Source: an uncultured Gemmatimonadales bacterium
Lineage (GTDB): Bacteria; Gemmatimonadota; Gemmatimonadetes; Gemmatimonadales; GWC2-71-9
Reading direction: 5' to 3'
Length of the DNA stretch: 11,275 nucleotides
Assembly: GCA_963771275.1 (NCBI GenBank)
Contig: CAVYSW010000008.1
Location: 1 to 11,275 of the forward strand
Under the pieces are notes generated by a model, which saw only the letters and a program-made list of their open reading frames with translations, was not told where the DNA came from and searched no databases. Position 1 is the stretch's first letter. Every line of letters starts with the position of its first letter. Below, piece after piece: positions 1 to 11,070 of the stretch. Position numbers and translations under genes: made by a program.

Positions 1-1
1 C

Positions 2-253
2 GACTACATGTACTCGGTGTGGGGCACCTCCTCGGCGGACGTGTATGCGGTGGGCTGCACGTACACCTCCGTGGGGAATCTGTACGAGGCAACGGTCATT
101 CACTACAACGGCACGAGCTGGACCGAGCAAATGCGGCGTTCCACGGGGATGGACGGGACTTCCAGTTGCGACCTCCATGGAGTCTGGGGCAGCTCACCCA
201 CCCAGGTCTTCGCCGTTGGCGGCTACGGAACGGTGTTCCACGGAACGCGGTGA
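2..253 (+). CDS. C-terminal part of a WG-S-repeat (beta-propeller-like) extracellular protein, 5'-truncated by the window edge
   Basis: The frame is open from base 2 to TGA at 251-253. It carries two copies of the repeat motif, VWGTSSADVYAVG and VWGSSPTQVFAVG, separated by HYNGTSW, which is typical of repeat beta-propeller surface proteins. Confidence 0.7.
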   Translation, partial: DYMYSVWGTSSADVYAVGCTYTSVGNLYEATVIHYNGTSWTEQMRRSTGMDGTSSCDLHGVWGSSPTQVFAVGGYGTVFHGTR

Positions 254-434
254 GGGCGGCCATCGAGACATGCTGCCGGCGCTCGGCTTCGGGTCGTCAG
301 AGTGATAGGGGCGTACCTGTTGGGCACGTGCAACAGCACCCTCGTTCCCATGCTCCCGTGTGAAGGTTGCGGACTGGGCCGTCAGGGTGAAGTATTGCGA
401 ATCCGACTCCGCTAGCGACGAGTGCCCAGCCATT

Positions 435-439
435 GGAGG
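435..439 (+). promoter_or_regulatory. Shine-Dalgarno site for the metallopeptidase
   Basis: GGAGG at 435-439 lies 5 nt before ATG 445, which favours 445 over the TTG at 433 as the start. Confidence 0.6.
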
Positions 440-444
440 CGACG

Positions 445-2148
445 ATGCAGCCTGTTGTCCGGCACCTCACGTGGACCCTCGCGGTATGCGCCGTGCCGCT
501 CCTCGCCAACGGTTGTTCCGACCTGCCGGTCGACGGGTCCCCCCCGGCCGTGACTCCGGCCGGCCCCAGCGCGTGGCGGAACTTCGCGGTCGCCGTCACC
601 TGTACCGCGAGCGTCGCGGAGAGCAGCCTTACCTGCAAGCAGCCTCGTCCAGGCCCCGGCGCCCTCGGGCCGAACTTCCTGATCGTGGGTGGGCAGAACC
701 AGTTCGTCCGGCTCGCGTCCAGCGGCGTGAGCTACGACGGGAGCGACATCTTCCAGGCCAACGTGACCGTGACGGTCCTGTTCGGTCAGCCAATGGGTAC
801 GACGGACGGGGTGACGAGCACCGGCGTGCGGGTGTTCTTCCACAGCGGACCAACGATGACCGGCGGCTCCGGCGTGGTGACCGTGGCCAATGCGGACGGA
901 ACGGACACGTTCACCGGCACAGACCAGCCGTACCACCTGTACCCCCAGATCCTGTCCACCAACACCCCCTCGGCACCCAAGACGTGGCGGTGGCATGTAC
1001 CGCCCACGGTCACGACGTTCGAGTTCGAGGTCTACGTCGAGGGCGACGTCGTCTACCCGGACGGATGGGTCGTGGTGCAGCCGCATCCGTGGTACGTCAT
1101 GCCGGGAGGACAGCTCCAACTCGGGGCAACCGTCCTCGACGTCGTCACCCGTGACGTTGGGGGCGCGGTCACCTGGTCCTCCGGGGACGACGCGATCGCG
1201 ACGGTCGACGGCACCGGCCTGGTGGGGGGTGTCGCGCCCGGCGTCGTGGACATCGCAGCGTCGAACGGCGGGCCCCAGGCGGACGGCTTTTCGCGGGTCA
1301 CCGTGCTCGGCAGCGGCTTCAACATCGCGCTCCGCCTCTGGCCCGGCACGCCGGCACCGACGCAGTCCATCCTGGACGCGTTCACGAACGCCAAGGGACG
1401 GTGGGAATCGTTGATCACGGGCGACCTGCAGGCCGTGCTGCTGCACCAGGCGGCCATCCCGTGCGCACCGGCCCTCAACGAGGTGATCGACGACCTGTTG
1501 ATCTTCATGGCCGTGGTGCCGATCGACGGCCCCGGGGGAATCTTGGGGCAGGCCGGCCCATGTTATTACCGCAATTCTGGATCCCTGCCAATAACGGGTA
1601 AGATGGAGTTCGACGTCGCCGACCTGGCTGATCTGCAGGCAGCGGGTCAGTTGGAAGACGTGATCGTGCACGAGATGGGGCACGTGCTCGGGTTCGGAGT
1701 CTTCTGGGGCGGGTTAGGATTGCTGGTACCCAGCACGTGCAGTGGGACGTCGGTGGACCCATATTTCAACGGTGCCTCCGCCCAGGCCGCATTTGACGCG
1801 GCCGGCGGCACAAGCTACAGCGGCAACAAGGTACCGGTCGAGAACACCGGTGGTGCAGGCACGGTCTGCAGTCACTGGCGCGAGAGCGTGCTCGGCAACG
1901 AATTGATGACGGGATGGCTCGATGCGGGCGCGAGTCCGCTCAGCGCGATCACCGTGCAATCCCTGGCCGACATGGGGTACACCGTGGACGCGTCCGGCGC
2001 CGATTCGTATACTCTGCCATCGGCGCCGGGGCCGGCCCTGCGCACGGGGGCAGTCGCCCTCAACAACGATATCCGCCCGGGGCCCTTCTACATGGTGGAC
2101 GAGCAAGGCCGGGTGACGGTGATGACGGCGCCGCGGCGGCGGCCCTGA
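445..2148 (+). CDS. Lipoprotein leishmanolysin-like (M8 family) zinc metallopeptidase with an N-terminal beta-rich domain and an Ig-like (Big_2) domain
   Basis: Signal peptide with lipobox LLANG-C. Ig-like motif VTWSSGDDAIATVDGTGLV. Catalytic domain with IDGPGGILGQAGP, zinc motif HEMGH (1669-1683), third ligand in CSHW (His at 1873) and Met-turn NELMTG (Met at 1906). Confidence 0.85.
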   Translation: MQPVVRHLTWTLAVCAVPLLANGCSDLPVDGSPPAVTPAGPSAWRNFAVAVTCTASVAESSLTCKQPRPGPGALGPNFLIVGGQNQFVRLASSGVSYDGSDIFQANVTVTVLFGQPMGTTDGVTSTGVRVFFHSGPTMTGGSGVVTVANADGTDTFTGTDQPYHLYPQILSTNTPSAPKTWRWHVPPTVTTFEFEVYVEGDVVYPDGWVVVQPHPWYVMPGGQLQLGATVLDVVTRDVGGAVTWSSGDDAIATVDGTGLVGGVAPGVVDIAASNGGPQADGFSRVTVLGSGFNIALRLWPGTPAPTQSILDAFTNAKGRWESLITGDLQAVLLHQAAIPCAPALNEVIDDLLIFMAVVPIDGPGGILGQAGPCYYRNSGSLPITGKMEFDVADLADLQAAGQLEDVIVHEMGHVLGFGVFWGGLGLLVPSTCSGTSVDPYFNGASAQAAFDAAGGTSYSGNKVPVENTGGAGTVCSHWRESVLGNELMTGWLDAGASPLSAITVQSLADMGYTVDASGADSYTLPSAPGPALRTGAVALNNDIRPGPFYMVDEQGRVTVMTAPRRRP

Positions 2149-2193
2149 GGCACCGGACGCCAAGCGATCGAACCGACAACGAGCGCGGACTAC

Positions 2194-2199
2194 GAGGAG
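2194..2199 (+). promoter_or_regulatory. Shine-Dalgarno site for the precursor peptide
   Basis: GAGGAG lies 7 nt upstream of ATG 2207. Confidence 0.7.
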
Positions 2200-2206
2200 T
2201 CATACG

Positions 2207-2389
2207 ATGAAGCCCACCAACCAGCAGTCGCGAACGCCGCCGGATGACTCGCTCCGGGGACCGGGACGCAGGCAGTGGACCCCCCCGACGGTGGAGGAGC
2301 TGCCGAAGCTGACCGACCTCACGCTCCTGACGGGAGACCCGATCGGCGGCGGCGGCGGCACCGGGGGCGGAGGGTCGTCGGTGTTCTAG
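2207..2389 (+). CDS. Putative RiPP precursor peptide (60 aa) with a lasso-type leader and a Gly-rich core
   Basis: Strong RBS. WTPPTVEELPKLTDLTL matches the spacing of the lasso/RRE leader motif (Y/W)xxPxLxxxGxxxxxTx at W24, P27, V29 and T39, with Pro at the Gly position. The C-terminus is LTGDPIGGGGGTGGGGSSVF. It sits directly upstream of the radical SAM gene, in an operon with PqqD and B2. Confidence 0.85.
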   Translation: MKPTNQQSRTPPDDSLRGPGRRQWTPPTVEELPKLTDLTLLTGDPIGGGGGTGGGGSSVF

Positions 2390-2392
2390 GCC

Positions 2393-3400
2393 GTGCCGAT
2401 GCTCGTAGGCTTTGCCGTCACGGAGCACTGCAACCTGCGGTGCCCGCACTGCATCCGCGACGACGTCACCACCGTACGCTCGCTCGAGCCCGAGCTGATC
2501 GTCTCGGTGCTCGATCAGGCTGTGGCCCTGTTCGGGCCGGTCACGGCGAGCTTCACGGGCGGCGAGCCGCTGCTGCACGCCGAGTTCGGCCGCATCGTGG
2601 CGGACTGCTCTGCCCGCGACGTGCCGTACCGCTTCGTCACCAACGCCTGGCACTTGAAGCGGGCCGTCCCGCTGCTGCGCCGCCATCGCCCGCAATCCGT
2701 GCGGCTGAGCCTCTCCGGGGCGAGCGAAGCCACCCATGACGCCGAGCGCGGCCAGGGGAGCTTCCGCCGGGTCCTGCTCGGCGCGGCGCTGCTCACGAAC
2801 GAGCGGATTCCCGCGTACCTGTCGATCGTGATCGACCGCAGGAACCGCCACGAGCTCCGGACCGCCGCGGACCTCGCCGAGCAGCTGGGGTGCCTCGGCA
2901 TCGGGTTCATCCTGCCGCAGCCGACGCCCGGCAGCGCCGCGCGGAACAGCGATCTCCCACCCGAGGAGTGGGTGGCGACGGTGCGTGCGGTCCAAGCGCT
3001 CGCCGCTGAACCGGGACGACGGTCGGCGGTGACTCTGGACTACGGCCACCCGTTCGAGGGCGCCGAGGCCCCGTGCGAGACCTTCGCGCGGCAGCGGATT
3101 TACGTGGACACCAAGGGCCGGCTCTGCACCTGCTGCCAGCTCTCCGGGTTCGGCTTCAACGAGACTGAGGTCGTCGCCGATCTGCACGACGTCTCGCTGG
3201 CAGAGGCGTACGAGCGATACGCTCATCGGGTCGAGGCGCTGCGCCGGGCCCAGCGACCTGTCATCGGGAGTCCGCACCTCACCGATCCGTTCCCCTGCCT
3301 CCGGTGCTGCGTTGCGAGCGGGAAGCTCGAGTGGCTCTCCCAGCACCCGGGGTCGCACTGGCACCGCGCCGCGCTGCGGACGGTCACGTCGGCGGCGTGA
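2393..3400 (+). CDS. Radical SAM enzyme with a C-terminal SPASM/twitch-like Cys-rich region, probable peptide maturase
   Basis: CNLRCPHC (CxxxCxxC, 2429-2452), FTGGEPLL and FVTNA motifs. C-terminal PC...IYVDTKGRLCTCC...CLRCC. The start is GTG 2393 or ATG 2399. Confidence 0.92.
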   Translation: MPMLVGFAVTEHCNLRCPHCIRDDVTTVRSLEPELIVSVLDQAVALFGPVTASFTGGEPLLHAEFGRIVADCSARDVPYRFVTNAWHLKRAVPLLRRHRPQSVRLSLSGASEATHDAERGQGSFRRVLLGAALLTNERIPAYLSIVIDRRNRHELRTAADLAEQLGCLGIGFILPQPTPGSAARNSDLPPEEWVATVRAVQALAAEPGRRSAVTLDYGHPFEGAEAPCETFARQRIYVDTKGRLCTCCQLSGFGFNETEVVADLHDVSLAEAYERYAHRVEALRRAQRPVIGSPHLTDPFPCLRCCVASGKLEWLSQHPGSHWHRAALRTVTSAA

Positions 3401-4569
3401 TGCCTCGGTCTCGTGAGTGCGTTGCCGAGCGCCTCCCAAGCGGGAAGCGCCGAGCAAGCACGCTGGTCTGCTGCCTGTGCGGCGCACTTGCGTGCGGTGA
3501 CTCCACGGGCCCTGACGCGCTCGCCATCGAGATCGCCGGCCGCCTGGAGCGCAGTGCCGTGGTGACCCTGAGCGCGAGCTTCGAGGGGACGCTCCTGGCC
3601 GATTCCGCGGTCACCTGGACCGCCGAGCCGGCCGGTGCCGTGATGTTCCTCGGAGGAGGCATCGCCACACTCGCCCAGGTAGGGCAAGTCACCCTCTCCG
3701 CGCATGCGGCGGTCGGAACCGGTGAGCGCACGATAACGGTGGCGACGCCGCCGACCATCGTGTTCGACCTGCTGCGCGACGGGAACCGCGACATCTATCG
3801 GGTAGCGCTCGATGGCGGGGACCTGGCGCGCCTCACCACCGACCCGGGGGACGACGGCGATCCGACGGCCGTGGGCGACCGCGTCGTCTTCGTCAGCTAT
3901 CGGGATGGGAACGGCGAGCTGTATGCGACATCGCTGAGCGGAGGGGCGCCCACGAGGCTCACGTTCACCGACGTGGCCGAAGCGGGACCGGCACTGTCGC
4001 GGGACGGCGCGTGGCTGGCCTACACCAGGACCGATGGGGGAGTACCCAAGCTGTGGGTGTCACTGTCCAACGGCGGGGGGGCGAGCCCGGGTCACCGGGA
4101 GCTTCGGGTTCGCGGGCTCGATCGAGGCGAGCCCGTCCTGGGCTCCGAGCGGGGATCGTCTGGCCTTCGTGTCCACGTCCGAGGGGACGGCGGACCTGTT
4201 CACCTATGCGGTATCCACTGGAGCGTTCGCCCCGCTCGTGCCGGACTCGGCGGCGCGCGCGGAGGTGGAGCCCGCGTGGAGTCCCGATGGCGCGTGGGTG
4301 GCGTTTGCGACCGACCGCCCCGGCGATACCGAGATCTACCTGCTCGAGGTCGCGACGGGCGAGCTGCGTCGCCTGACCAATCGTCCCGATAGCGATGGAC
4401 AGCCGACCTGGGTGCCGGACGGGCGGCTGGTGTACGTCGCCTGGACCGGGGCGCTCCCGGCCTCCGCTGGCTCGATCCGCAGGTACCGAGCGAGATTCAC
4501 GACATCGACGTCGGGCCGGGCGAGCCACGCCACCCGGCCGGCGTTCTCCCGCTACCGGCGAGCCAATGA
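3400..4569 (+). CDS. TolB-like (PD40-repeat) beta-propeller lipoprotein, interrupted by two apparent frameshifts (~4087 and ~4450)
   Basis: ATG 3400 overlaps the radical SAM stop (TGATG). Lipobox GALA-C-GDSTGP. Repeats include RDGNRDIY, VFVSYRDGNGELY, PALSRDGAWLAY, PSWAPSGDRLAFVS and EPAWSPDGAWVAFATDRPGDTEIY. The reading frame goes 1, then 2 (extra C near 4087), then 1 again (missing G in the run at 4448-4451), and ends LRWLDP...PASQ* at TGA 4567-4569. Confidence 0.8.
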
Positions 4570-4844
4570 GCGACGGCGCACCCGCTCCGCGATACGCGGT
4601 CTCGAAGGACGTGCTGACCGCCCATCTCGAGGGTGAAGCCGTGTTGCTGCACCTCGAGACCAAGCAGTACTACCGACTCAACGAAACCGCGGCGGCCATC
4701 TGGCGGGGCCTGGAGGGCGGCCTGGATCCGGCCGACATCGTTGGGGGCCTCGTCAAGGACTTCGAGATCGACGCCGCGACCGCTGAAGCCGAGGTCGAGC
4801 GGGTGCTCGGCGATCTGCGCGAACGGGGTCTCCTCGCATCGTGA
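4566..4844 (+). CDS. PqqD-family RiPP recognition element (lasso B1/E-like), 92 aa
   Basis: ATG 4566 forms an ATGA overlap with the upstream stop. The sequence LEGEAVLLHLETKQYYRLNETAAAIW...AEVERVLGDLRERGLL is a typical PqqD/RRE pattern. Confidence 0.93.
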   Translation: MSDGAPAPRYAVSKDVLTAHLEGEAVLLHLETKQYYRLNETAAAIWRGLEGGLDPADIVGGLVKDFEIDAATAEAEVERVLGDLRERGLLAS

Positions 4845-5230
4845 CGAGCCGTTTGCTCGAGATGGCGATCGGGACCGGCGCCGCACTCCGCAGTCCCCTG
4901 TGGATCACGGGCTCGCGCCTGCAACGGCTGCTGCAGGACACCCCCGGCGTCTCGCGGGGCTCCCGTCATCCCGAGACTGCGACGCGAGCTTCTCTGCTCG
5001 CCCTGAGGGCGCTCGCGCGCCTTCCCCTGCTCCCGTGGCGGAATACGTGCCTCTACCGCAGCGTCGCCGAGTGTCTCGTGCTGCGGAGCTGCGGGATCGG
5101 CTGCCGGCTGCAACTCGGCGTGTCGCACGACGCCGCGTCGGGTGACGGGATCGTGGCCCACGCGTGGGTGGAGCGCAGTGACCGAGAGCAGGCCGATCAC
5201 CCTCACGTCCTGCTGCGCCCTGGTTCGTGA
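4841..5230 (+). CDS. Lasso peptide B2-type transglutaminase-like leader peptidase
   Basis: GTGA-coupled to PqqD. Motifs NTCLYRS (Cys at 5048), LQLGV and AHAWVE (His at 5159) are diagnostic of the Transglut_core3/B2 family. Confidence 0.9.
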   Translation: MTSRLLEMAIGTGAALRSPLWITGSRLQRLLQDTPGVSRGSRHPETATRASLLALRALARLPLLPWRNTCLYRSVAECLVLRSCGIGCRLQLGVSHDAASGDGIVAHAWVERSDREQADHPHVLLRPGS

Positions 5231-6192
5231 GCATTCGTGGAGACGACGGGCAGATCGCGCACGCGTTGCTGGCAGATCAATCGCTCGTGCTGCGGTCGGA
5301 CCCCCGCTGCTGGCCCCTCGTCCAGCCGTGGGTGCCGCTGAGCTGCGATCCGGCAGAAGCGGGCGCACCACCTCGCGCCGTCGTGGCGGTCGAACCCATG
5401 CAGTCCCCGGCACCGGCATCGGGACAGGTCGGGCTACCCACACTGCAAGTTGGGCCCGTCCGTGCGTGGCTCGACGCCTCAGCGGCAAGCGTGGTGCTGA
5501 GGGGGGCCACGGGCAGCTCGGGCCGGCTCGACCTCGAGGCGCTTCGCGCCACGCTGTGGGCAGACCTCGCTGCGGGCGAGGCAGCCGGTGCCGACCTCTA
5601 CTCCATGCTCACTATCGCGGCGGCGCTGCTGCTCGGCAGGATGCGACGGCCCGTGATCCATGCCGGAGCGGTCGTGGCACCTGATGGGAAGGGTTGGCTC
5701 GTCGTGGGTGATGCGCGGTCGGGCAAGTCCACAGCGTGCGTGAGCCTGGCGAGCAGCGGCTGGGGACTGCTGTCGGACGACCAGGTGGTGCTCACGCCGA
5801 ACGGCCCCACGCTCGAAGTCGAGGGTTGGCTGCGACCCGTGCATCTCGACGAGGGATGGAACGACGGGATACCGCGGGGCAGCCGCCGCACCGTGCACCC
5901 CTCCGAGCTGGGCGCCGGCGCGACGCGCCGCGTCGTGCCGCTTGCCGGCACCGTGCACACGTCCGTCGATCCTGCCCAACCGACGCGCGTCTCCGAGATT
6001 TCGGCGGGTGATGCGTTCACGGGACTGGTCCGCCAGTCCCCGTGGCTCCTTGCCGACCGCGTGGTGGCGCCGTCGCTGGTCGACATCTTGTCGGCCGTCG
6101 CACACCTGCCGCGGTTCTCCTTGCGCTTGGGGCTGGATACGTTCGGCAGGCCAGACCGGGTGCAAGCGTTGCTTACGCCGGCGCTGTTCTAG
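5227..6192 (+). CDS. HPr-kinase-like P-loop kinase (PadeK/ThcoK-like peptide kinase family)
   Basis: GTGA-coupled to B2. Motifs IHAGAV, Walker A GDARSGKST (5707-5733) and LLSDD. Confidence 0.85.
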   Translation: MSIRGDDGQIAHALLADQSLVLRSDPRCWPLVQPWVPLSCDPAEAGAPPRAVVAVEPMQSPAPASGQVGLPTLQVGPVRAWLDASAASVVLRGATGSSGRLDLEALRATLWADLAAGEAAGADLYSMLTIAAALLLGRMRRPVIHAGAVVAPDGKGWLVVGDARSGKSTACVSLASSGWGLLSDDQVVLTPNGPTLEVEGWLRPVHLDEGWNDGIPRGSRRTVHPSELGAGATRRVVPLAGTVHTSVDPAQPTRVSEISAGDAFTGLVRQSPWLLADRVVAPSLVDILSAVAHLPRFSLRLGLDTFGRPDRVQALLTPALF

Positions 6193-7344
6193 CACCACCC
6201 TTCCCCCTCGCGCGGGCCGACAAGACAGCGGCGGCCAGGGCGAGCGGAAGCCCGAAGGCCATCCCGATCGCCACACGCAGGACTCTCGCAGCAACTCTGA
6301 CACCCCGGCCGAGTCGCGGTGCCCGCCGCTCGATCCATGCAATGGGGGGTGACAACGAGACGCCCGTGGTGACCGCCCGCACCCGGTCCCACTCGGTGCG
6401 CATCTCGGCCCGGCCCGCGAGAAGCGCAACCGCCCACCTCCCGACGTCGCCGCGGACCACCTCTGGGAGGGGGAGCCACCGGCCCTGCTGGCGTACCGAG
6501 GCGGACACGGCAGCCTGGTACGTGAACCTGTCTTCAAGCGGCGCCGTGCCGGCTAGCGCTTGGGCCATGAACAGCATGTCGCGCAGCGTGAGCGCATGCG
6601 CGTCACACGCGATCTGCGCCTCGACATCCGCCAGTTCTGACTTACTGCACTGAGCCAGGGCCCAACTCACCAGCAGCAGGTCCCGAATTGCCCCCCTCCG
6701 GTAGGCGTGGAGCGCACCAACGTGCACGAGGAGGTGCCAGAGATGGTCCCTGGCACCCAGGCGACGGAGACCGGTCGCGCCGGCCAGCGGGGTGACCCGG
6801 CTCCAGATGGACTCGGACCAGTCGCACCCCACCATGTCGATCTTGGCGTGGACCTCGACCGGGAGCCCGGCCCCCGCGGCGATCCTCCCCTTGAGGTGGA
6901 ACGGACTACTGGGCCCAACGTCACGGTAGCCGGTGGAGTCGAGAGCCGCAGCAAGCGCCCGGGCATCGTCCGGCCTTGCCAGGACGTCGATATCTGCCAA
7001 GTCCACCGGGTTCTGGTCGGTCAGCGCCGCGACGCCACCCTTGAGCACCACCACCTCCCAGCCGTGTTCCGCCGCCAGGCGATCGATCAGCTGCAGCTGC
7101 GCCCGCGCGCTGAGCACCCGCTGCAGCTCAGTCCGGGCGGCGTGTCGAGCAGCAGCTGGGATTCCTGGTCGAGCAACGCGCGCTGGCCGCTCGCGACGAG
7201 GCGGCCCTTGAGCGGCAGCGCACATCGCTCGGTACGGAGAAAGAGGCCCCAGGAAGCGGGGGAGCATCGAGGCGGCGCTGAAGGGGCGCGCGCGAGACTC
7301 TGGAGCACCCAGGCCCGCAGGTCGAGGACTTCACTGATTCGCAT
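6173..7344 (-). CDS. Nucleotidyltransferase family protein (NTP_transf_5-like), with one apparent frameshift near 7140
   Basis: Motifs VVLKGG, DLADIDVLA, VEVH and HLLVH in ORF 6173-7267. The plausible N-terminus MRISEVLDLRAWVL...ESQLLLDT lies in another frame (ATG 7344, or an alternative start at 7404) and joins AARTELQR if one G is restored near 7140. Confidence 0.8.
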
Positions 7345-7654
7345 TTCATCCGCCAGGGCGACCGGTTGGGCTCGATGCGCCAAGAATATGCCCCGGGGGA
7401 TCACACCGCGAGGTCGAAGGCCTCCAGATCGCTCGAAGGCCGTCTCACGGCCGGCCTTCTTGGCCCCAGTTGGCCGATCTCCCCTCGCTAGTCCATTGAC
7501 CGGCCGCTACGTAGGCGTGATGTTTTCGAGGCTTGCTGATTTCGAGCGTCTCGATGGAGCCGCGGCGATGTGCTGGCATCATGGTACGCGCCGTGCTTAC
7601 CTTAGCCGCCGCCATTGCACTTCCTCTCGAGCCTACAGGGACGGCTGAGTGAGC

Positions 7655-8541
7655 ATGCGAAAGGGAATCATCCTGGCCGGTGGGTCCGGCACGCGTCTCT
7701 ACCCGATCACGCGGGCGGTGAGCAAGCAGATGCTCCCCGTGTACGACAAGCCGATGATTTATTTCCCGCTGACGACGCTGATGCTGGCCGGCATCCGGGA
7801 CCTGCTCCTCATCTCCACGCCGACCGACCTGCTGGGCTTCCAGCGCCTGCTCGGGGACGGCTCCGCGTGGGGACTGAGCCTGTCCTACGCGGAGCAGCCG
7901 TCGCCGGATGGGATCGCGCAAGCGTTTCTGATCGGGCGGGAGTTCGTCGGCGGCGCGCCCAGCTGTCTGGTCCTCGGTGACAATCTGTTCTATGGCAACG
8001 ACCTCACGGCGGCCCTGCGGCGCGCGGACGCGCGGGCCAGGGGCGCGACGGTGTTCGGCTACCACGTGCGCCGATCCCGCGCGCCTACGGCGTGATCGAG
8101 TTCGACGGCACGGGGCGCGCGGTCAGCATCGAGGAGAAACCCGAACGGCCGCGCTCGCACCACGCCGTGACGGGTCTCTACTTCTACGACGAGCGGGCGT
8201 GCGACTTCGCCGCCGCGCTGACCCCGTCGCCCCGGGGGGAGCTGGAGATCACCGACCTGAACCGTCGCTACCTCGAGGACGGCTCGCTGCACGTCGAGGT
8301 CCTGCGGCGCGGGACGGCGTGGCTCGATACCGGGACGCCGGAATCCCTGCTCCAGGCCGGCCAGTTCATCGAGACGATCGAGCAGCGCCAGGGGCTGCCG
8401 CATCGCCTGCCCGGAGGAGATCGCGTTTCGCATGGGCTTCATCGATGCGCGCGCAGCTCGAGGCGCTCGCCGCGCCGCTCGCGCGCACCGCGCTACGGCC
8501 GGTACCTGCTCGACGTGCTCGCCGAGAGTCGCGGCTCGTGA
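7655..8541 (+). CDS. rmlA: Glucose-1-phosphate thymidylyltransferase (frameshifted in this sequence)
   Basis: [59 protein letters not shown] and WLDTGT. Frame breaks occur near 8070-8085 and 8400-8490. Confidence 0.95.
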
Positions 8542-9091
8542 ACGTCCGCCGGACGGCGCTGGAGGGCGTCCTCGTGCTCGAGCCCCGCATCTTCGCGGAC
8601 GGCCGGGGCGCGTTTCTCGAGACGTGGCACGCCGAACGCTATGCCGAGGCCGGGATCTCCCGGTCCATTCGTGCAGGACAATCTCAGTCGATCGGTGCGC
8701 GGCACGTGCTCCGCGGGCTGCACTATCAGGTCGAGCAGCCGCAGGGGAAGCTGGTGTGGGCGGTCGCGCGGCGAGATCTTCGACGTGGCCGTGGACCTGC
8801 GGCGCTCGTCGCCGACCTTCGGCCGGTGGATCGGCGAACGGCTGTCGGGCGACAACGGCTGCCAGCTCTGGATCCCGCCCGGGTTCGCGCACGGCTTCCT
8901 CACCCTCTCGGAGCGCGCGCACGTGGCGTACAAGTGCACGGCGCCCTACGCCCCGGCACACGAGCGCACCCTGCGATGGGACGACCCCACGCTGAGCATC
9001 GCGTGGCCCCTGCCGGACGGGCGTCGCGCCGATCGTCTCCGAGAAGGACGCCGGGGGACTGACGCTGGCCGAGGCGCCCTGCTTCCCGTGA
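8538..9091 (+). CDS. rmlC: dTDP-4-dehydrorhamnose 3,5-epimerase (frameshifted in this sequence)
   Basis: GTG 8538 in a GTGA overlap. Motifs [59 protein letters not shown] and SEKD are spread across frames. Stop TGA at 9089-9091. Confidence 0.93.
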
Positions 9092-9963
9092 CGCGCGTGC
9101 TGGTCACCGGTGCGCTCGGCCAGCTCGGCAGCGAGCTGCGGCGCACGGTCCCGCCGGGCCACGAGATCGTGGCCCTCGACCTGCCGGACTTCGATCTGAC
9201 GCACGCGGCCGACGTCCGGCGCGTCGTCCACGATGCGGCGCCGCACGCGATCATCAACGCCGCCGCCTACACCGCCGTGGACCAGGCCGAAGACGAGCCG
9301 CGACCTGGCCCGCGCGGTGAACGTGGATGGCGCCGCCGCGATCGCCGCGCGCAGCCGTCGAGGCCGGCGCCCGACTGATCCACGTGTCCACCGACTACGT
9401 GTTCGACGGAACGGCCGGCCGCCCGTATCGCGCGGACGATCCGGTCTGCCCCACCAGCGTGTACGGCGAAACCAAGGCGGCGGGAGAGCGTGCGGTGCTG
9501 GAGGCCACGGGAGGCGATGCCGCGGTGGTGCGCACCGCCTGGTTGTACTCCGCGACCGGCAACAACTTCGTGAAGACCATGCTGCGCCTGCTGGGCAGCC
9601 GGGACCAGGTGGGCGTCGTGGCGGACCAGATCGGCTCGCCGACCTGGGCGCGCGGCCTCGCGGTGGCACTGTGGCGCCTGCTGGAGGCCCCCGACGCACG
9701 GGGCAGTCCACCACTGGACCGACGCGGGCGTCGCGAGCTGGTACGATCTGGCGGTGGCGGTGGCGGAGGAAGGACGGGCCCTGGGTCTGTTGAAGCAACC
9801 CGGAGCGGTGCGGCCCATCACGACCGCCGAGTACCCGACCCGCGCGCGCCGCCCCGCGTACAGCGTGCTGCAGCGGAGTCCCGTGTGGGAGGCACTCGGC
9901 GTCCCCGCGGCCCATTGGCGAACCCAGCTGCGCGGCATGCTCGGAGAGCTGGCACATGGCTAA
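9088..9963 (+). CDS. rmlD: dTDP-4-dehydrorhamnose reductase (frameshifted in this sequence)
   Basis: VLVTGALGQLG, INAAAYTAVDQAE, HVSTDYVFDG, YGETKAAGE, VVADQIGSPT and RPAYSVL. Stop TAA at 9961-9963. Confidence 0.93.
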
Positions 9964-11070
9964 CCTGCTCGTCACCGGCGGTGCCGGCTTCATCGGCGCA
10001 ATTTCGTGCACTACTGGCTGCGCGAGCACCCGGGCGACCGCGCTGGTGGTGCTCGACGCGCTGACCTACGCCGGGCAATCTCGCCAACCTCGCCGCGGCC
10101 GACGGGCATGCCAGGCTTCCACTTCGTCCACGGCGACATCGGCGACGGCGATCTGGTGGAGGCAGCTGCTCAAGCAGCACGCCATCGACACGATCGTGCA
10201 CTTCGCCGCCGAGTCGCCACGTCGATCGCTCGATCCACGGCCCCGGACGACTTCGTGCGCACCAACGTCGTCGGCACCGCCACGCTGCTGCGAGGCCCGC
10301 GCAGTGTGGCTCGAGCGGCGGCGGCTCCGCGAGGCCGGTCCGCTTCCACCACGTCTCGACCGACGAGGTGTACGGCTCGCTTGGGCCCCGACCGGCCGTT
10401 CACGGAAGACGACGCCCTACGCGCCCAACTCGCCGTACGCGGCGAGCAAGGCGGCGTCCGACCACCTGGTGCGCGCCTACCACCACACGTACGGGCTGCC
10501 CGGTCACCACCACCAACTGCTCCAACAACTACGGACCGTACCAGTTCCCGGAGAAGCTGATCCCGCTGATGATCGTGAACGCGCTGGAGGGCGCAGCCGC
10601 TGCCGGTCTACGGCGACGGCCAGAACGTGCGGGATTGGCTGTACGTGGAGGACCACTGCCGCGCGATCGATCGCGTCCTCGAGCGGGCCGAGTCGGCGAG
10701 ACCTACAACGTGGGCGGGCGCACCGAGCGGGCCAACCTCGACCTGGTCCGCGCCCTCTGCGCGCTGATCGACGCGGCAGTTCGCCACGGACCCACGGCTG
10801 CGCGAGCGGTTCCCGCGGCAGCCCGGCGGCCGCGGGCAAGCCCACCGCGTCCCTGATCACGTTCGTGAAGGACCGCCCCGGCCACGACCGGCGCTACGCC
10901 ATCGACGACGCCAAGCTCGCGCGCGGAGCTGGGGTTCTGCCCGCACCAGTCGCTCGACTCGGGCCTCGCGCTCACCGTGGCGTGGTATCTCGGATAACGA
11001 GCCCTGGTGGCGCTCGGTGATGGATGGCAGCTACAAGGACTGGATTCGCCACCATTACGGGGGTCCCTAA
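9956..11070 (+). CDS. rmlB: dTDP-glucose 4,6-dehydratase (heavily frameshifted in this sequence)
   Basis: [73 protein letters not shown] and [14 protein letters not shown]. It ends [15 protein letters not shown] at TAA 11068-11070. Confidence 0.93.

Follow-up and report, generated by a model that had tools for sequence, protein, structure and literature searches.

Paeninodin- and pseudomycoidin-type lasso peptide clusters, which are found in Bacillota, comprise the A, B1, B2 and C genes together with genes for an HprK-like kinase and a nucleotidyltransferase. Two other kinds of gene set, SynChlorMet (SCM) and HPr-rel-A, which are uncharacterised and defined by NCBIfam/TIGRFAM from genomes, combine an HprK-like protein with a PqqD-like protein, and SCM sets also include radical S-adenosylmethionine (SAM)/SPASM proteins. 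Here, a locus that shares several of these genes was studied in a stretch of DNA from an uncultured Gemmatimonadales bacterium. This stretch, referred to below as the window, is the entire 11,275-base contig C8 of a 3.86-Mb genome assembled in 11 contigs (96.7% complete). The locus encodes a small precursor peptide, a radical SAM enzyme, a TolB-like lipoprotein, a discrete PqqD-type recognition element (RRE) of the kind used for peptides that are synthesized ribosomally and then modified post-translationally (RiPPs), a lasso-type B2 protease, an HprK-like kinase and a convergent nucleotidyltransferase. In our judgement, it is probably a cyclase-less, RRE-dependent radical-SAM peptide maturation cassette that is so far restricted to Gemmatimonadota, the phylum covered by the genome survey.

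The cassette resembles paeninodin-type clusters in its discrete B1-like RRE, B2 protease, putative HprK-like kinase and NTP_transf_5 protein and in the Thr or Ser at position -2 of the precursor. In addition, the aromatic residue of the [Y/W]xxP motif in its leader is Trp and not Tyr, a feature typical of paeninodin-like leaders according to the accessible part of one study (PMC13381572). In contrast to paeninodin-type clusters, neither the window nor 17 related loci were found to encode a cyclase, the genome has none by curated cut-offs, and most cores are incompetent for ring formation. A radical SAM enzyme and periplasmic lipoproteins belong to the set, and the phylum is Gemmatimonadota.

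The same study describes LPP, a cyclase-less family with a kinase, a nucleotidyltransferase and an RRE (Popov et al., Nat Commun 2026, PMC13381572). According to the accessible sections of that paper, the LPP peptidase is a signal-peptidase-I homologue of the archaeal type, the exporter is MsbA-like, LppK polyphosphorylates one Ser, and the family is said to occur only in Bacillota and to be found in capsule loci. The present cassette is similar in having the RRE, putative kinase and nucleotidyltransferase without a cyclase near polysaccharide genes. However, LPP clusters do not use B2 as their peptidase and have no radical SAM enzyme, a term absent from the text of that paper, whereas the present cassette has both, and the LPP leader YxxPxVLxHQxIxFETxxS differs from the leader RRPWxxPxVxxLPRLTxLTLQTG found here. 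The LPP precedent makes a cyclase-less set less surprising. It also renders outdated the premise of the original prediction that such a tailoring set always needs a cyclase, since the LPP clusters, as presented there, are a counter-example.

The radical SAM enzyme shares the CxxxCxxC motif and a C-terminal Cys-rich, putatively auxiliary region with the RRE-dependent SPASM/twitch maturases PqqE, SkfB, StsB, SuiB, CteB and MftC, and, as for PqqE and StsB (partner StsC), a discrete PqqD-type partner is encoded. Unlike these maturases, it reached no curated cut-off, the Pfam SPASM domain was undetected, and four or five auxiliary Cys residues are conserved; the substrate is Gly-rich and mostly Cys-free, and its leader is predicted to be removed by a lasso B2. 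With the radical SAM enzyme and with the kinase, the SCM and HPr-rel-A models gave the best or near-best profile scores, but these sets differ from the cassette in that all of their models were matched far below the cut-offs (score/cut-off: ScmF, 66.9/400; ScmE, 51.2/400; ScmC, 21.4/125; ScmD, 24.4/100; HprK_rel_A, 35.9/200; PqqD_rel_X, 24/35).

DAG-RiPPs (PNAS 2026, PMC13056109) are described, in the accessible part of that source, as RiPP-lipoprotein hybrids whose precursor carries a lipoprotein signal peptide and is modified in the cytoplasm before export. The modified core follows the lipobox and is retained by the product after lipidation, the enzymes are MNIOs, and lasso-type N-terminal processing is deemed there to be unlikely to coexist with a signal peptide. 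The topology is opposite in the fused forms found in this study, in which leader and core come before the hydrophobic stretch and the lipobox and therefore would depart with the signal peptide. The window precursor, unlike those of DAG-RiPPs, has no signal peptide. A literature search of the available main texts yielded no description of this gene set and no paper combining PqqD, 'HPr kinase' and 'radical SAM', and five leader/core motif strings were unmatched. Set against these systems, the cassette is probably an RRE-dependent radical-SAM RiPP variant that borrows the lasso peptidase.

To describe the family, relatives of the radical SAM enzyme were collected. At least 626 were found at E<=0.001 among 8,000 candidates scored, and the best 120 had 60-91% identity. 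A relative was encoded in 270 of 348 pattern-matched stretches of a species-level genome collection; the best 80 were kept, and the titled records among them belonged to Gemmatimonadota lineages. The comparison was made over 82 non-redundant loci, namely the window, a second copy of the cassette on contig C10 of the same genome, and L032-L111. Many of these loci are cut short. L027-L031 were left out, as they lie on the same contigs as L037, L039, L067, L086 and L100. Partner genes in the 82 loci were called with profiles built from matches to the window proteins.

A small precursor-like open reading frame (ORF) was present in nearly every locus. When 75 distinct precursor sequences were aligned, one W, two P, one L and one T were invariant; in the window precursor these are W24, P27, P33, L38 and T39. 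The family consensus consists of the leader RRPWxxPxVxxLPRLTxLTLQTG followed by xxIPGxGxxGxGSTVF. No family in Pfam or NCBIfam matched the precursor. Searched against 1.84 billion representative proteins, a profile built for it matched 349 clusters (E<=1e-3), of which 168 were also matched at E<=1e-10. The profile matched 76 of the 82 loci and, in the genome of the window, only the C8 and C10 copies. Core statistics were obtained for 71 of the 75 sequences, the other four having been missed by the anchor pattern. Stand-alone precursor genes lay directly upstream of the radical SAM gene in 51 of 71 cases.

Thr or Ser was found two residues before the likely cut (-2) in 70 of 71 precursors, and this, together with the invariant W-x-x-P, bears out the lasso-like leader claimed by the original prediction. 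An aromatic-x-x-P motif and Thr at -2 are lasso recognition features according to the accessible parts of two papers (PMC10885120, PMC13381572). As W/Y/LxxP motifs are common to lasso, PqqD and StsC RREs (PMC12710340, from the portion available), the motif alone is not lasso-specific; it is B2 that is.

The cores had a median length of 16 aa and contained 36% Gly. The window core, D44-F60, is likewise Gly-rich and terminates in SSVF. The most common ends were STVF (24 cores), STCF (6), GTVF (6) and SSVF (4, window included), with VIP, IFP, VCP, VTP and VFG as variants. Ser or Thr occurred within the last five core residues in 67 of the 71 and an aromatic residue within the last three in 55. 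Cys was present in 15 cores, 14 of which hold two; one site is just past the conserved I-P/x-G and the other within the C-terminal motif.

No match to the precursor profile was found at six loci (L032, L033, L034, L036, L086 and L095). These include the four closest relatives of the window radical SAM enzyme (71-73% identity), where no obvious small ORF was seen in the 500 bases upstream. The precursor of these six loci may lie outside the available stretch or be too divergent.

Additional small ORFs were also observed. L044 has two precursor genes with different cores. In Longimicrobium loci, another small ORF lies on the downstream side of the radical SAM gene and encodes a different, lasso-like leader of the RRPFVxPxVExLGxL type and a short hydrophobic end (L058, 9546-9692; L064, 10444-10701; L075, 6846-6995; L076, 2711-2989; L059, 10382-10591). 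Downstream of this ORF, L058 and L059 have a gene for a protein of ~630 aa that matches no Pfam family and genes for YadA_head/Peptidase_S74 proteins (three in L058, one in L059).

The radical SAM protein opens directly with CxxxCxxC and has no N-terminal RRE domain. C13/C17/C20 and C228/C248/C302/C305 were invariant in 14 sequences, and C247 was present in most of them. SPASM (PF13186) was not detected in this enzyme at E<=0.01, and the Cys pattern points to one probable auxiliary Fe-S site. The AlphaFold2 model had a mean predicted local distance difference test (pLDDT) value of 84.6, and its nearest folds were those of the SPASM/twitch enzymes anSME, BlsE, SuiB, PqqE, SkfB and CteB (template modeling score ~0.6). 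SkfB and PqqE were also the nearest solved sequences (~3e-11). Although 50 NCBIfam models matched the enzyme, none of the best 25 matches was above its cut-off: the best curated score was that of ScmF, and examples of the others are StsB at 64.4/625, MftC at 56.4/265 and PqqE at 49.5/381. By these scores, the enzyme belongs to no characterised family, in line with the original prediction. Side observations in this family were second radical SAM genes of the same or a related kind, located near the cassette or elsewhere (L049, 3315-4160; contigs C34 and C14 of genome G207).

The nearest solved relatives of the PqqD protein were the lasso B1 proteins TbiB1 (5.1e-11) and TfuB1 (1.3e-7); against NF033530, it scored 57.4 bits, below the cut-off of 70. 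A complex of the radical SAM enzyme with PqqD was modelled and scored 0.74, whereas the best of three controls scored 0.00. A score of 0.74 was attained by 116 of 157 solved complexes and by 2 of 215 mismatched pairs. Contact agreement between the runs was 100%, and the pLDDT of the partner was at least 86. The model supports docking of PqqD on the radical SAM enzyme, that is, it favours binding without demonstrating it, and part of the score may reflect likeness to solved radical SAM enzymes with fused RRE domains.

The B2 protein scored above the NCBI lasso-B2 cut-off (Table 1), which supports its assignment to the lasso type. Its catalytic Cys (NTCLYRS) and His (HAWV) were conserved in 25 homologues, and the only B2 genes in the genome were those of the window and the C10 copy. 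The HprK-like kinase matched TIGR04352 with 35.9 bits (4.3e-9; cut-off 200) and PF07475 with 17.1 bits (0.004; cut-off 33.3); the Walker motif GxxxxGKS and the following SDD were conserved in 35 homologues. The DxD motif of NTP_transf_5 was conserved in 26 homologues. Sequence searches of the PDB gave no usable match for B2, the kinase (best E 0.16; no solved lasso kinase matched) or NTP_transf_5.

Whether a lasso cyclase accompanies the cassette was checked in the neighbourhoods of 17 related loci and in the genome. The neighbour set comprised 199 ORFs of at least 90 aa (125 + 74), for which gene calls were approximate; none of them matched Asn_synthase (PF00733) at E<=1e-4. In the genome of the window, PF00733 matched five places, corresponding to an asparagine synthase (C3), an AsnB-like fragment (C6), two NadE proteins and QueC. 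The C3 gene encodes a true asparagine synthase (385 bits, cut-off 267), which scored 148.7/525 and 69.7/300 with the lasso cyclase models NF033535 and NF033561. The AsnB-like fragment (C6:1-1005) is cut by the contig end and adjoins an NAD synthase gene; it matched asparagine synthase best (1.5e-44) and the XrtA/PEP-CTERM amidotransferase model next, and its lasso cyclase score was 80.6/525. The predicted lack of a cyclase thus holds for the homologous loci, and the AsnB-type proteins of the genome stay below the lasso cut-offs. Cores compatible with a lasso ring (G/A/S/C at position 1 and Asp/Glu at 7-9) numbered 14 of 71 if the later cut was assumed and 1 of 71 with the earlier cut. In the window core, taken as D44-F60 or as L41-F60, none of the residues at 7-9 is acidic, and this core is ring-incompetent. 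It may be concluded that the cassette is not a lasso peptide system.

The distribution of the cassette in the phylum is widespread but patchy. Strong radical SAM orthologues were present in 5 of 60 close relatives (G002, G006, G016, G018 and G028), and when 401 genomes of the phylum were sampled, 27 of them, representing 17 of 147 genera, had orthologues at E<=1e-60. Across the 82 loci, PqqD was found in 41, B2 in 26, the HprK-like kinase in 35, NTP_transf_5 in 26 and the TolB-like protein in 49. The M8N domain, which is the N-terminal domain of the lipoprotein encoded at 445..2148 in the window, was found in 50 and the M8 catalytic part in 5. In the 29 loci that extend for 5 kb or more to each side, the counts were 20 for PqqD, 13 for B2, 17 for the HprK-like kinase, 12 for NTP_transf_5, 23 for TolB-like and 19 for M8N. 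Gene order differed between loci, and the flanks consisted of unrelated housekeeping genes. B2 homologues were encoded elsewhere in the genome in all five tested genomes whose loci had none. The cassette is real and conserved but modular, and the full seven-gene set is common rather than universal. At two distant loci (L057, 4601-6677; L096, 3946-6113), three tandem genes with phage tail collar domains and a GNAT acetyltransferase gene were observed upstream of the cassette.

Lipoproteins were found to be linked to the cassette in several ways. M8N is fused either to Big_2 and an M8 protease, which is rare, or to propeller-like repeats (repeats follow M8N in 23 of 82 loci). Its AlphaFold2 model is an all-beta sandwich (pLDDT 87.2). 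Foldseek gave no PDB match for this model at E<=0.001, and the best ESM Atlas score was 0.81, below the level of a lead. With VIA-align, the best Z was 8.5 (a viral envelope protein), followed by CBM-like or appendage-like beta-sandwiches with Z of 5-7; this range is common, and no function was drawn from it. The precursor gene lay directly upstream of an M8N lipoprotein gene in 15 of 71 cases, with a gap of ~0-140 nt and in some cases an ATGA overlap. At L060, where no stand-alone precursor was found, three tandem genes for proteins of ~800 aa directly precede the radical SAM gene. The N-terminus of these proteins is leader plus core; after GGSTVF there is no stop, and a hydrophobic stretch, a lipobox Cys, M8N and propeller repeats follow. 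This layout recurred in a further six clusters, with lengths of 782-829 aa, and in four fragments, all of them within the 150 best-scoring of the 349 profile matches. In the fused forms, the RiPP-like module constitutes the n-region of a lipoprotein signal peptide. The M8 peptidase, which had been taken as a boundary of the locus, is not one; M8N marks a cassette-associated lipoprotein family.

On the basis of these data, the following course of maturation may be proposed. By homology to lasso B1, the discrete PqqD-type RRE would bind the W-x-x-P leader of the precursor. As suggested by the complex model and its controls, it would also dock on the radical SAM enzyme, in which an RRE domain is lacking. 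Modification of the Gly-rich core by this enzyme would involve the SAM cluster and a single auxiliary cluster. Our best guess, which carries somewhat less than half of the weight within this explanation, is a cross-link between the N-terminal (P/A)-I-x-G and the C-terminal (S/T)-(V/I/C)-(F/I) parts of the core, because Cys residues, where present, pair at these two ends, which is the only hint given by the sequences. The second choice is that the conserved Ile/Val is epimerised. By analogy with the kinases of paeninodin-type and LPP clusters, the HprK-like kinase would phosphorylate the conserved Ser/Thr near the C-terminus, and NTP_transf_5 would build on the phosphate. B2, to which the same RRE would present the leader, is predicted by homology to cut one residue past the conserved Thr/Ser (T42-G43|D44 in the window, alternatively after T39-L40). 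The product would work with the extracytoplasmic TolB-like propeller and M8N lipoproteins and, in a minority of genomes, may be made as an N-terminal extension of a lipoprotein signal peptide.

Several observations weigh against this reading. The radical SAM enzyme belongs to no characterised family, and its reaction is therefore a guess. The kinase is identified by sub-threshold profile matches and a conserved P-loop. The five partners PqqD, B2, HprK, NTP5 and TolB occurred together in only 7 of the 29 well-flanked loci, so that of the claim that the gene set is conserved as a unit, recurrence across Gemmatimonadota stands and fixed composition does not. The Longimicrobium loci L058, L075 and L084 have the precursor and the radical SAM gene only, with no partner gene within 8 kb. 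A conserved dedicated exporter was not found in the loci compared, the fused forms fit poorly with a simple free-peptide product, and 14 of the 71 cores are formally lasso-compatible. Moreover, the TolB-like gene of the window carries two frame changes.

Among the alternatives, a lipoprotein-linked system deserves most attention, although it is on balance unlikely. According to this explanation, leader and core are an enzyme-modified cytoplasmic N-terminal extension of lipoprotein signal peptides, the stand-alone precursors are split-off versions, and the cassette tags, gates or processes the export of the M8N/propeller lipoproteins or leaves a modified membrane-anchored peptide. The tandem fusions of L060 and the further fused clusters and fragments speak for it, as do the 15 precursor genes adjoining an M8N lipoprotein gene and the frequency of M8N and TolB-like genes in the loci (50 and 49 of 82). 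However, free peptides of 50-100 aa make up most of the family (~140 among the best 150 matches), 51 of 71 precursor genes precede the radical SAM gene and not a lipoprotein gene, the neighbouring lipoproteins, including the M8 protein of the window, have ordinary signal peptides of their own, and the fusions could stem from an event in one lineage. In a stronger form, for which we would give about a one in five chance, leader plus core would be a new N-terminal 'pro-signal' ahead of the lipoprotein signal peptide, and the free 60-aa peptides, that of the window among them, would be its split form. If this were true, entire pre-lipoproteins would be the cytoplasmic substrates of the lasso-type RRE/B2 pair and the radical SAM enzyme. 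The outcome would be either licensed export of surface lipoproteins or a modified peptide that stems from the signal peptide and is embedded in the membrane.

It is improbable that the product is a linear phosphorylated peptide of the LPP kind, defined by phosphorylation and nucleotidyl or glycosyl transfer, with the radical SAM enzyme acting on a non-peptide target. An RRE, an HprK-like kinase and an NTP transferase without a cyclase do form the core of LPP clusters, which lie in capsule loci (PMC13381572, accessible part), and rml genes adjoin the window; a KpsE/Wzz-like gene is present in the C10 copy, L094 and L051. However, the tightest pair is precursor and radical SAM enzyme (76 of 82 loci; 51 of 71 adjacent), whereas many loci have no gene for the kinase or the nucleotidyltransferase. 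The radical SAM-PqqD complex model passed its controls, the window has neither a signal-peptidase-I-type peptidase nor an MsbA-type pump, and the leader motif is unlike the LPP consensus.

A peptide-derived small molecule or cofactor, made in the manner of PQQ or mycofactocin by a radical SAM reaction on C-terminal residues and excision of the product by peptidases, is very improbable. Mycofactocin precursors end in Val-Tyr, and the conserved C-terminal (S/T)-V-F, the discrete PqqD partner and the metalloprotease co-encoded in the window are consistent with such a pathway. The radical SAM enzyme also matched the profiles of the mycofactocin maturase (2.8e-15) and PqqE (2.8e-13), far below their cut-offs. 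Against this, the C-termini vary, as in the ends VIP to VFG listed above, and are internal in the fused forms; homologues of the other mycofactocin or PQQ genes were absent among the 199 neighbouring ORFs, and the M8 catalytic domain was present in only 5 of 82 loci. Finally, a true lasso pathway with its cyclase encoded elsewhere, for which the lasso hallmarks (B1-like RRE, B2, WxxP leader and Thr at -2), the 14 ring-compatible cores and the contig-end-cut AsnB-like gene on C6 might be cited, is scarcely credible given that the window core and 57 of 71 cores are ring-incompetent, that none of the 199 neighbouring ORFs is Asn-synthase-like, that the AsnB-type proteins of the genome scored 148.7 and 80.6 against a cut-off of 525, and that no B2 or precursor was found outside the C8 and C10 copies.

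The features of the window are given in Table 1.

Table 1. Features identified in the 11,275-base window, with the evidence for each assignment.
Feature	Position	Strand	Evidence
Large lipoprotein gene, 3' end, with beta-propeller-like repeats; truncated by the contig start	1..253	+	Match to the C10 copy
Lipoprotein: signal peptide with lipobox, M8N beta-sandwich, Big_2, leishmanolysin-type M8 metalloprotease (HEMGH)	445..2148	+	PF01457 51.6 bits; PF02368 36.7 bits
Precursor peptide, 60 aa	2207..2389	+	GAGGAG Shine-Dalgarno sequence 7 nt before ATG
Radical SAM enzyme, likely start ATG 2399	2393..3400	+	PF04055 69.9 bits; CxxxCxxC at C13/C17/C20
TolB-like PD40 beta-propeller lipoprotein, three frame segments	3400..4569	+	PD40 matches in both frames; lipobox in translation
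Discrete PqqD-type RRE, lasso B1-like	4566..4844	+	PF05402 71.7 bits
Lasso-type B2 transglutaminase-like cysteine protease	4841..5230	+	NF033537 54.7 bits (cut-off 33); PF13471 48.9 bits
HprK-like P-loop kinase	5227..6192	+	Sub-threshold profiles; conserved Walker A
NTP_transf_5 nucleotidyltransferase, convergent	6173..7267	-	PF14907 60.8 bits (cut-off 31.2)
rmlA, rmlC, rmlD, rmlB	from 7649		Profile scans

The precursor, radical SAM, TolB-like, PqqD, B2 and HprK-like kinase genes and the convergent nucleotidyltransferase gene were all located by ORF listing and profile scans where the original prediction had placed them. Four stop/start junctions overlap (TGATG between the radical SAM and TolB genes, ATGA between TolB and PqqD, and GTGA between both PqqD and B2 and B2 and HprK), and the genes from radical SAM to HprK therefore form one operon, in agreement with the claim of a single operon. 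The 3' end of the NTP_transf_5 gene overlaps the kinase gene by 20 nt. Neither an Asn-synthase-like gene nor an ABC gene was found in the window by ORF listing and profile scans, as had been stated for the locus with respect to a cyclase and an ABC exporter; likewise, no ORF of the operon encodes a peptidase S26 or ABC protein, each of them falling in another family. Of the two proposed boundaries, the rml flank was retained, and the M8 peptidase was not, given that its M8N domain travels with the cassette (50 of 82 loci). Taken as a whole, the original prediction of a lasso leader-processing module recruited together with a radical SAM enzyme for a non-lasso peptide is largely supported, its boundary and a fixed gene set are not, and the lipoprotein link had been missed.

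The product of the truncated gene at the contig start (1..253) has 96% identity over 83 aa to the end of the complete gene in the C10 copy, which encodes an M8N domain and at least 12 repeat matches. By tblastn with intact homologues, the TolB-like gene was found to change frame twice (frame 1 to 2 to 1), at ~4060-4085, in a run of seven G, and at ~4450. All four rml genes (7649-11020) are broken as well. Most likely, contig C8 is indel-rich through assembly error. The possibility that the window copy is a decayed pseudo-cluster was considered and rejected, since breaks also occur in the rml housekeeping genes and are located at homopolymers. A promoter and terminator scan of 2100-7700 found no promoter-like and one terminator-like site, and shuffled sequences gave no fewer. 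A search of sequencing runs for shared words listed no RNA run; the best DNA matches, all of them contigs, shared 0.10 and 0.08 of the sampled words.

The second copy of the whole cassette lies at the extreme end of contig C10, where C10:835777-844139 (stretch L026, 6778-15140) corresponds to window positions 1-7338 with 86-88% DNA identity and many gaps. The encoded proteins form a mosaic: PqqD and B2 are identical (100%), the radical SAM enzyme has 93-96% identity, the M8 protein 80% and NTP_transf_5 63-75%. Contig C10 ends at the cassette end, and C8 runs on into the rml genes. The two copies could be paralogous loci or strain variants separated by the assembler. In the C10 copy, the precursor, radical SAM, kinase and nucleotidyltransferase genes are broken. 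The pattern of breaks in both copies fits homopolymer indel errors of assembly and not pseudogenes.

A polysaccharide co-polymerase-like gene was observed in or beside the cassette in the C10 copy (stretch L026, 10182-11150), in L094 (8960-9964) and in L051 (1107-2369). This assignment is based on a weak KpsE/BexC match and, in L051, on Wzz/GNVR. Beyond the C10 copy, the frequency of the gene was 2 of 81 sequences (loci L032-L111 and the window). The window copy does not have it, and ~1.1 kb is missing there between the radical SAM and TolB genes. Together with the adjoining rml genes, the co-polymerase-like gene echoes the capsule-locus setting reported for LPP and paeninodin clusters.

If confirmed, the cassette would show for the first time that the lasso-specific C96/B2 leader peptidase also serves peptides other than lasso peptides; in its accessible part, a review from 2023 assigns the C96/B2 protease family to lasso peptides only (PMC10885120). 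It would also provide a new radical SAM reaction, on a glycine-rich and mostly Cys-free substrate. The family is large: clustering at 50% identity gave 349 precursor clusters, and matches in species-level genomes numbered 270. The lipoprotein fusions pose the question of whether RiPP machinery can act on exported proteins or work with them. Viewed together with the LPP family, the RRE/kinase/nucleotidyltransferase module would be a mobile toolkit rather than a lasso accessory. Gemmatimonadota are little studied and are represented here almost wholly by uncultured genomes, and the family, confined to this phylum, would thus be an untouched source of enzyme chemistry.

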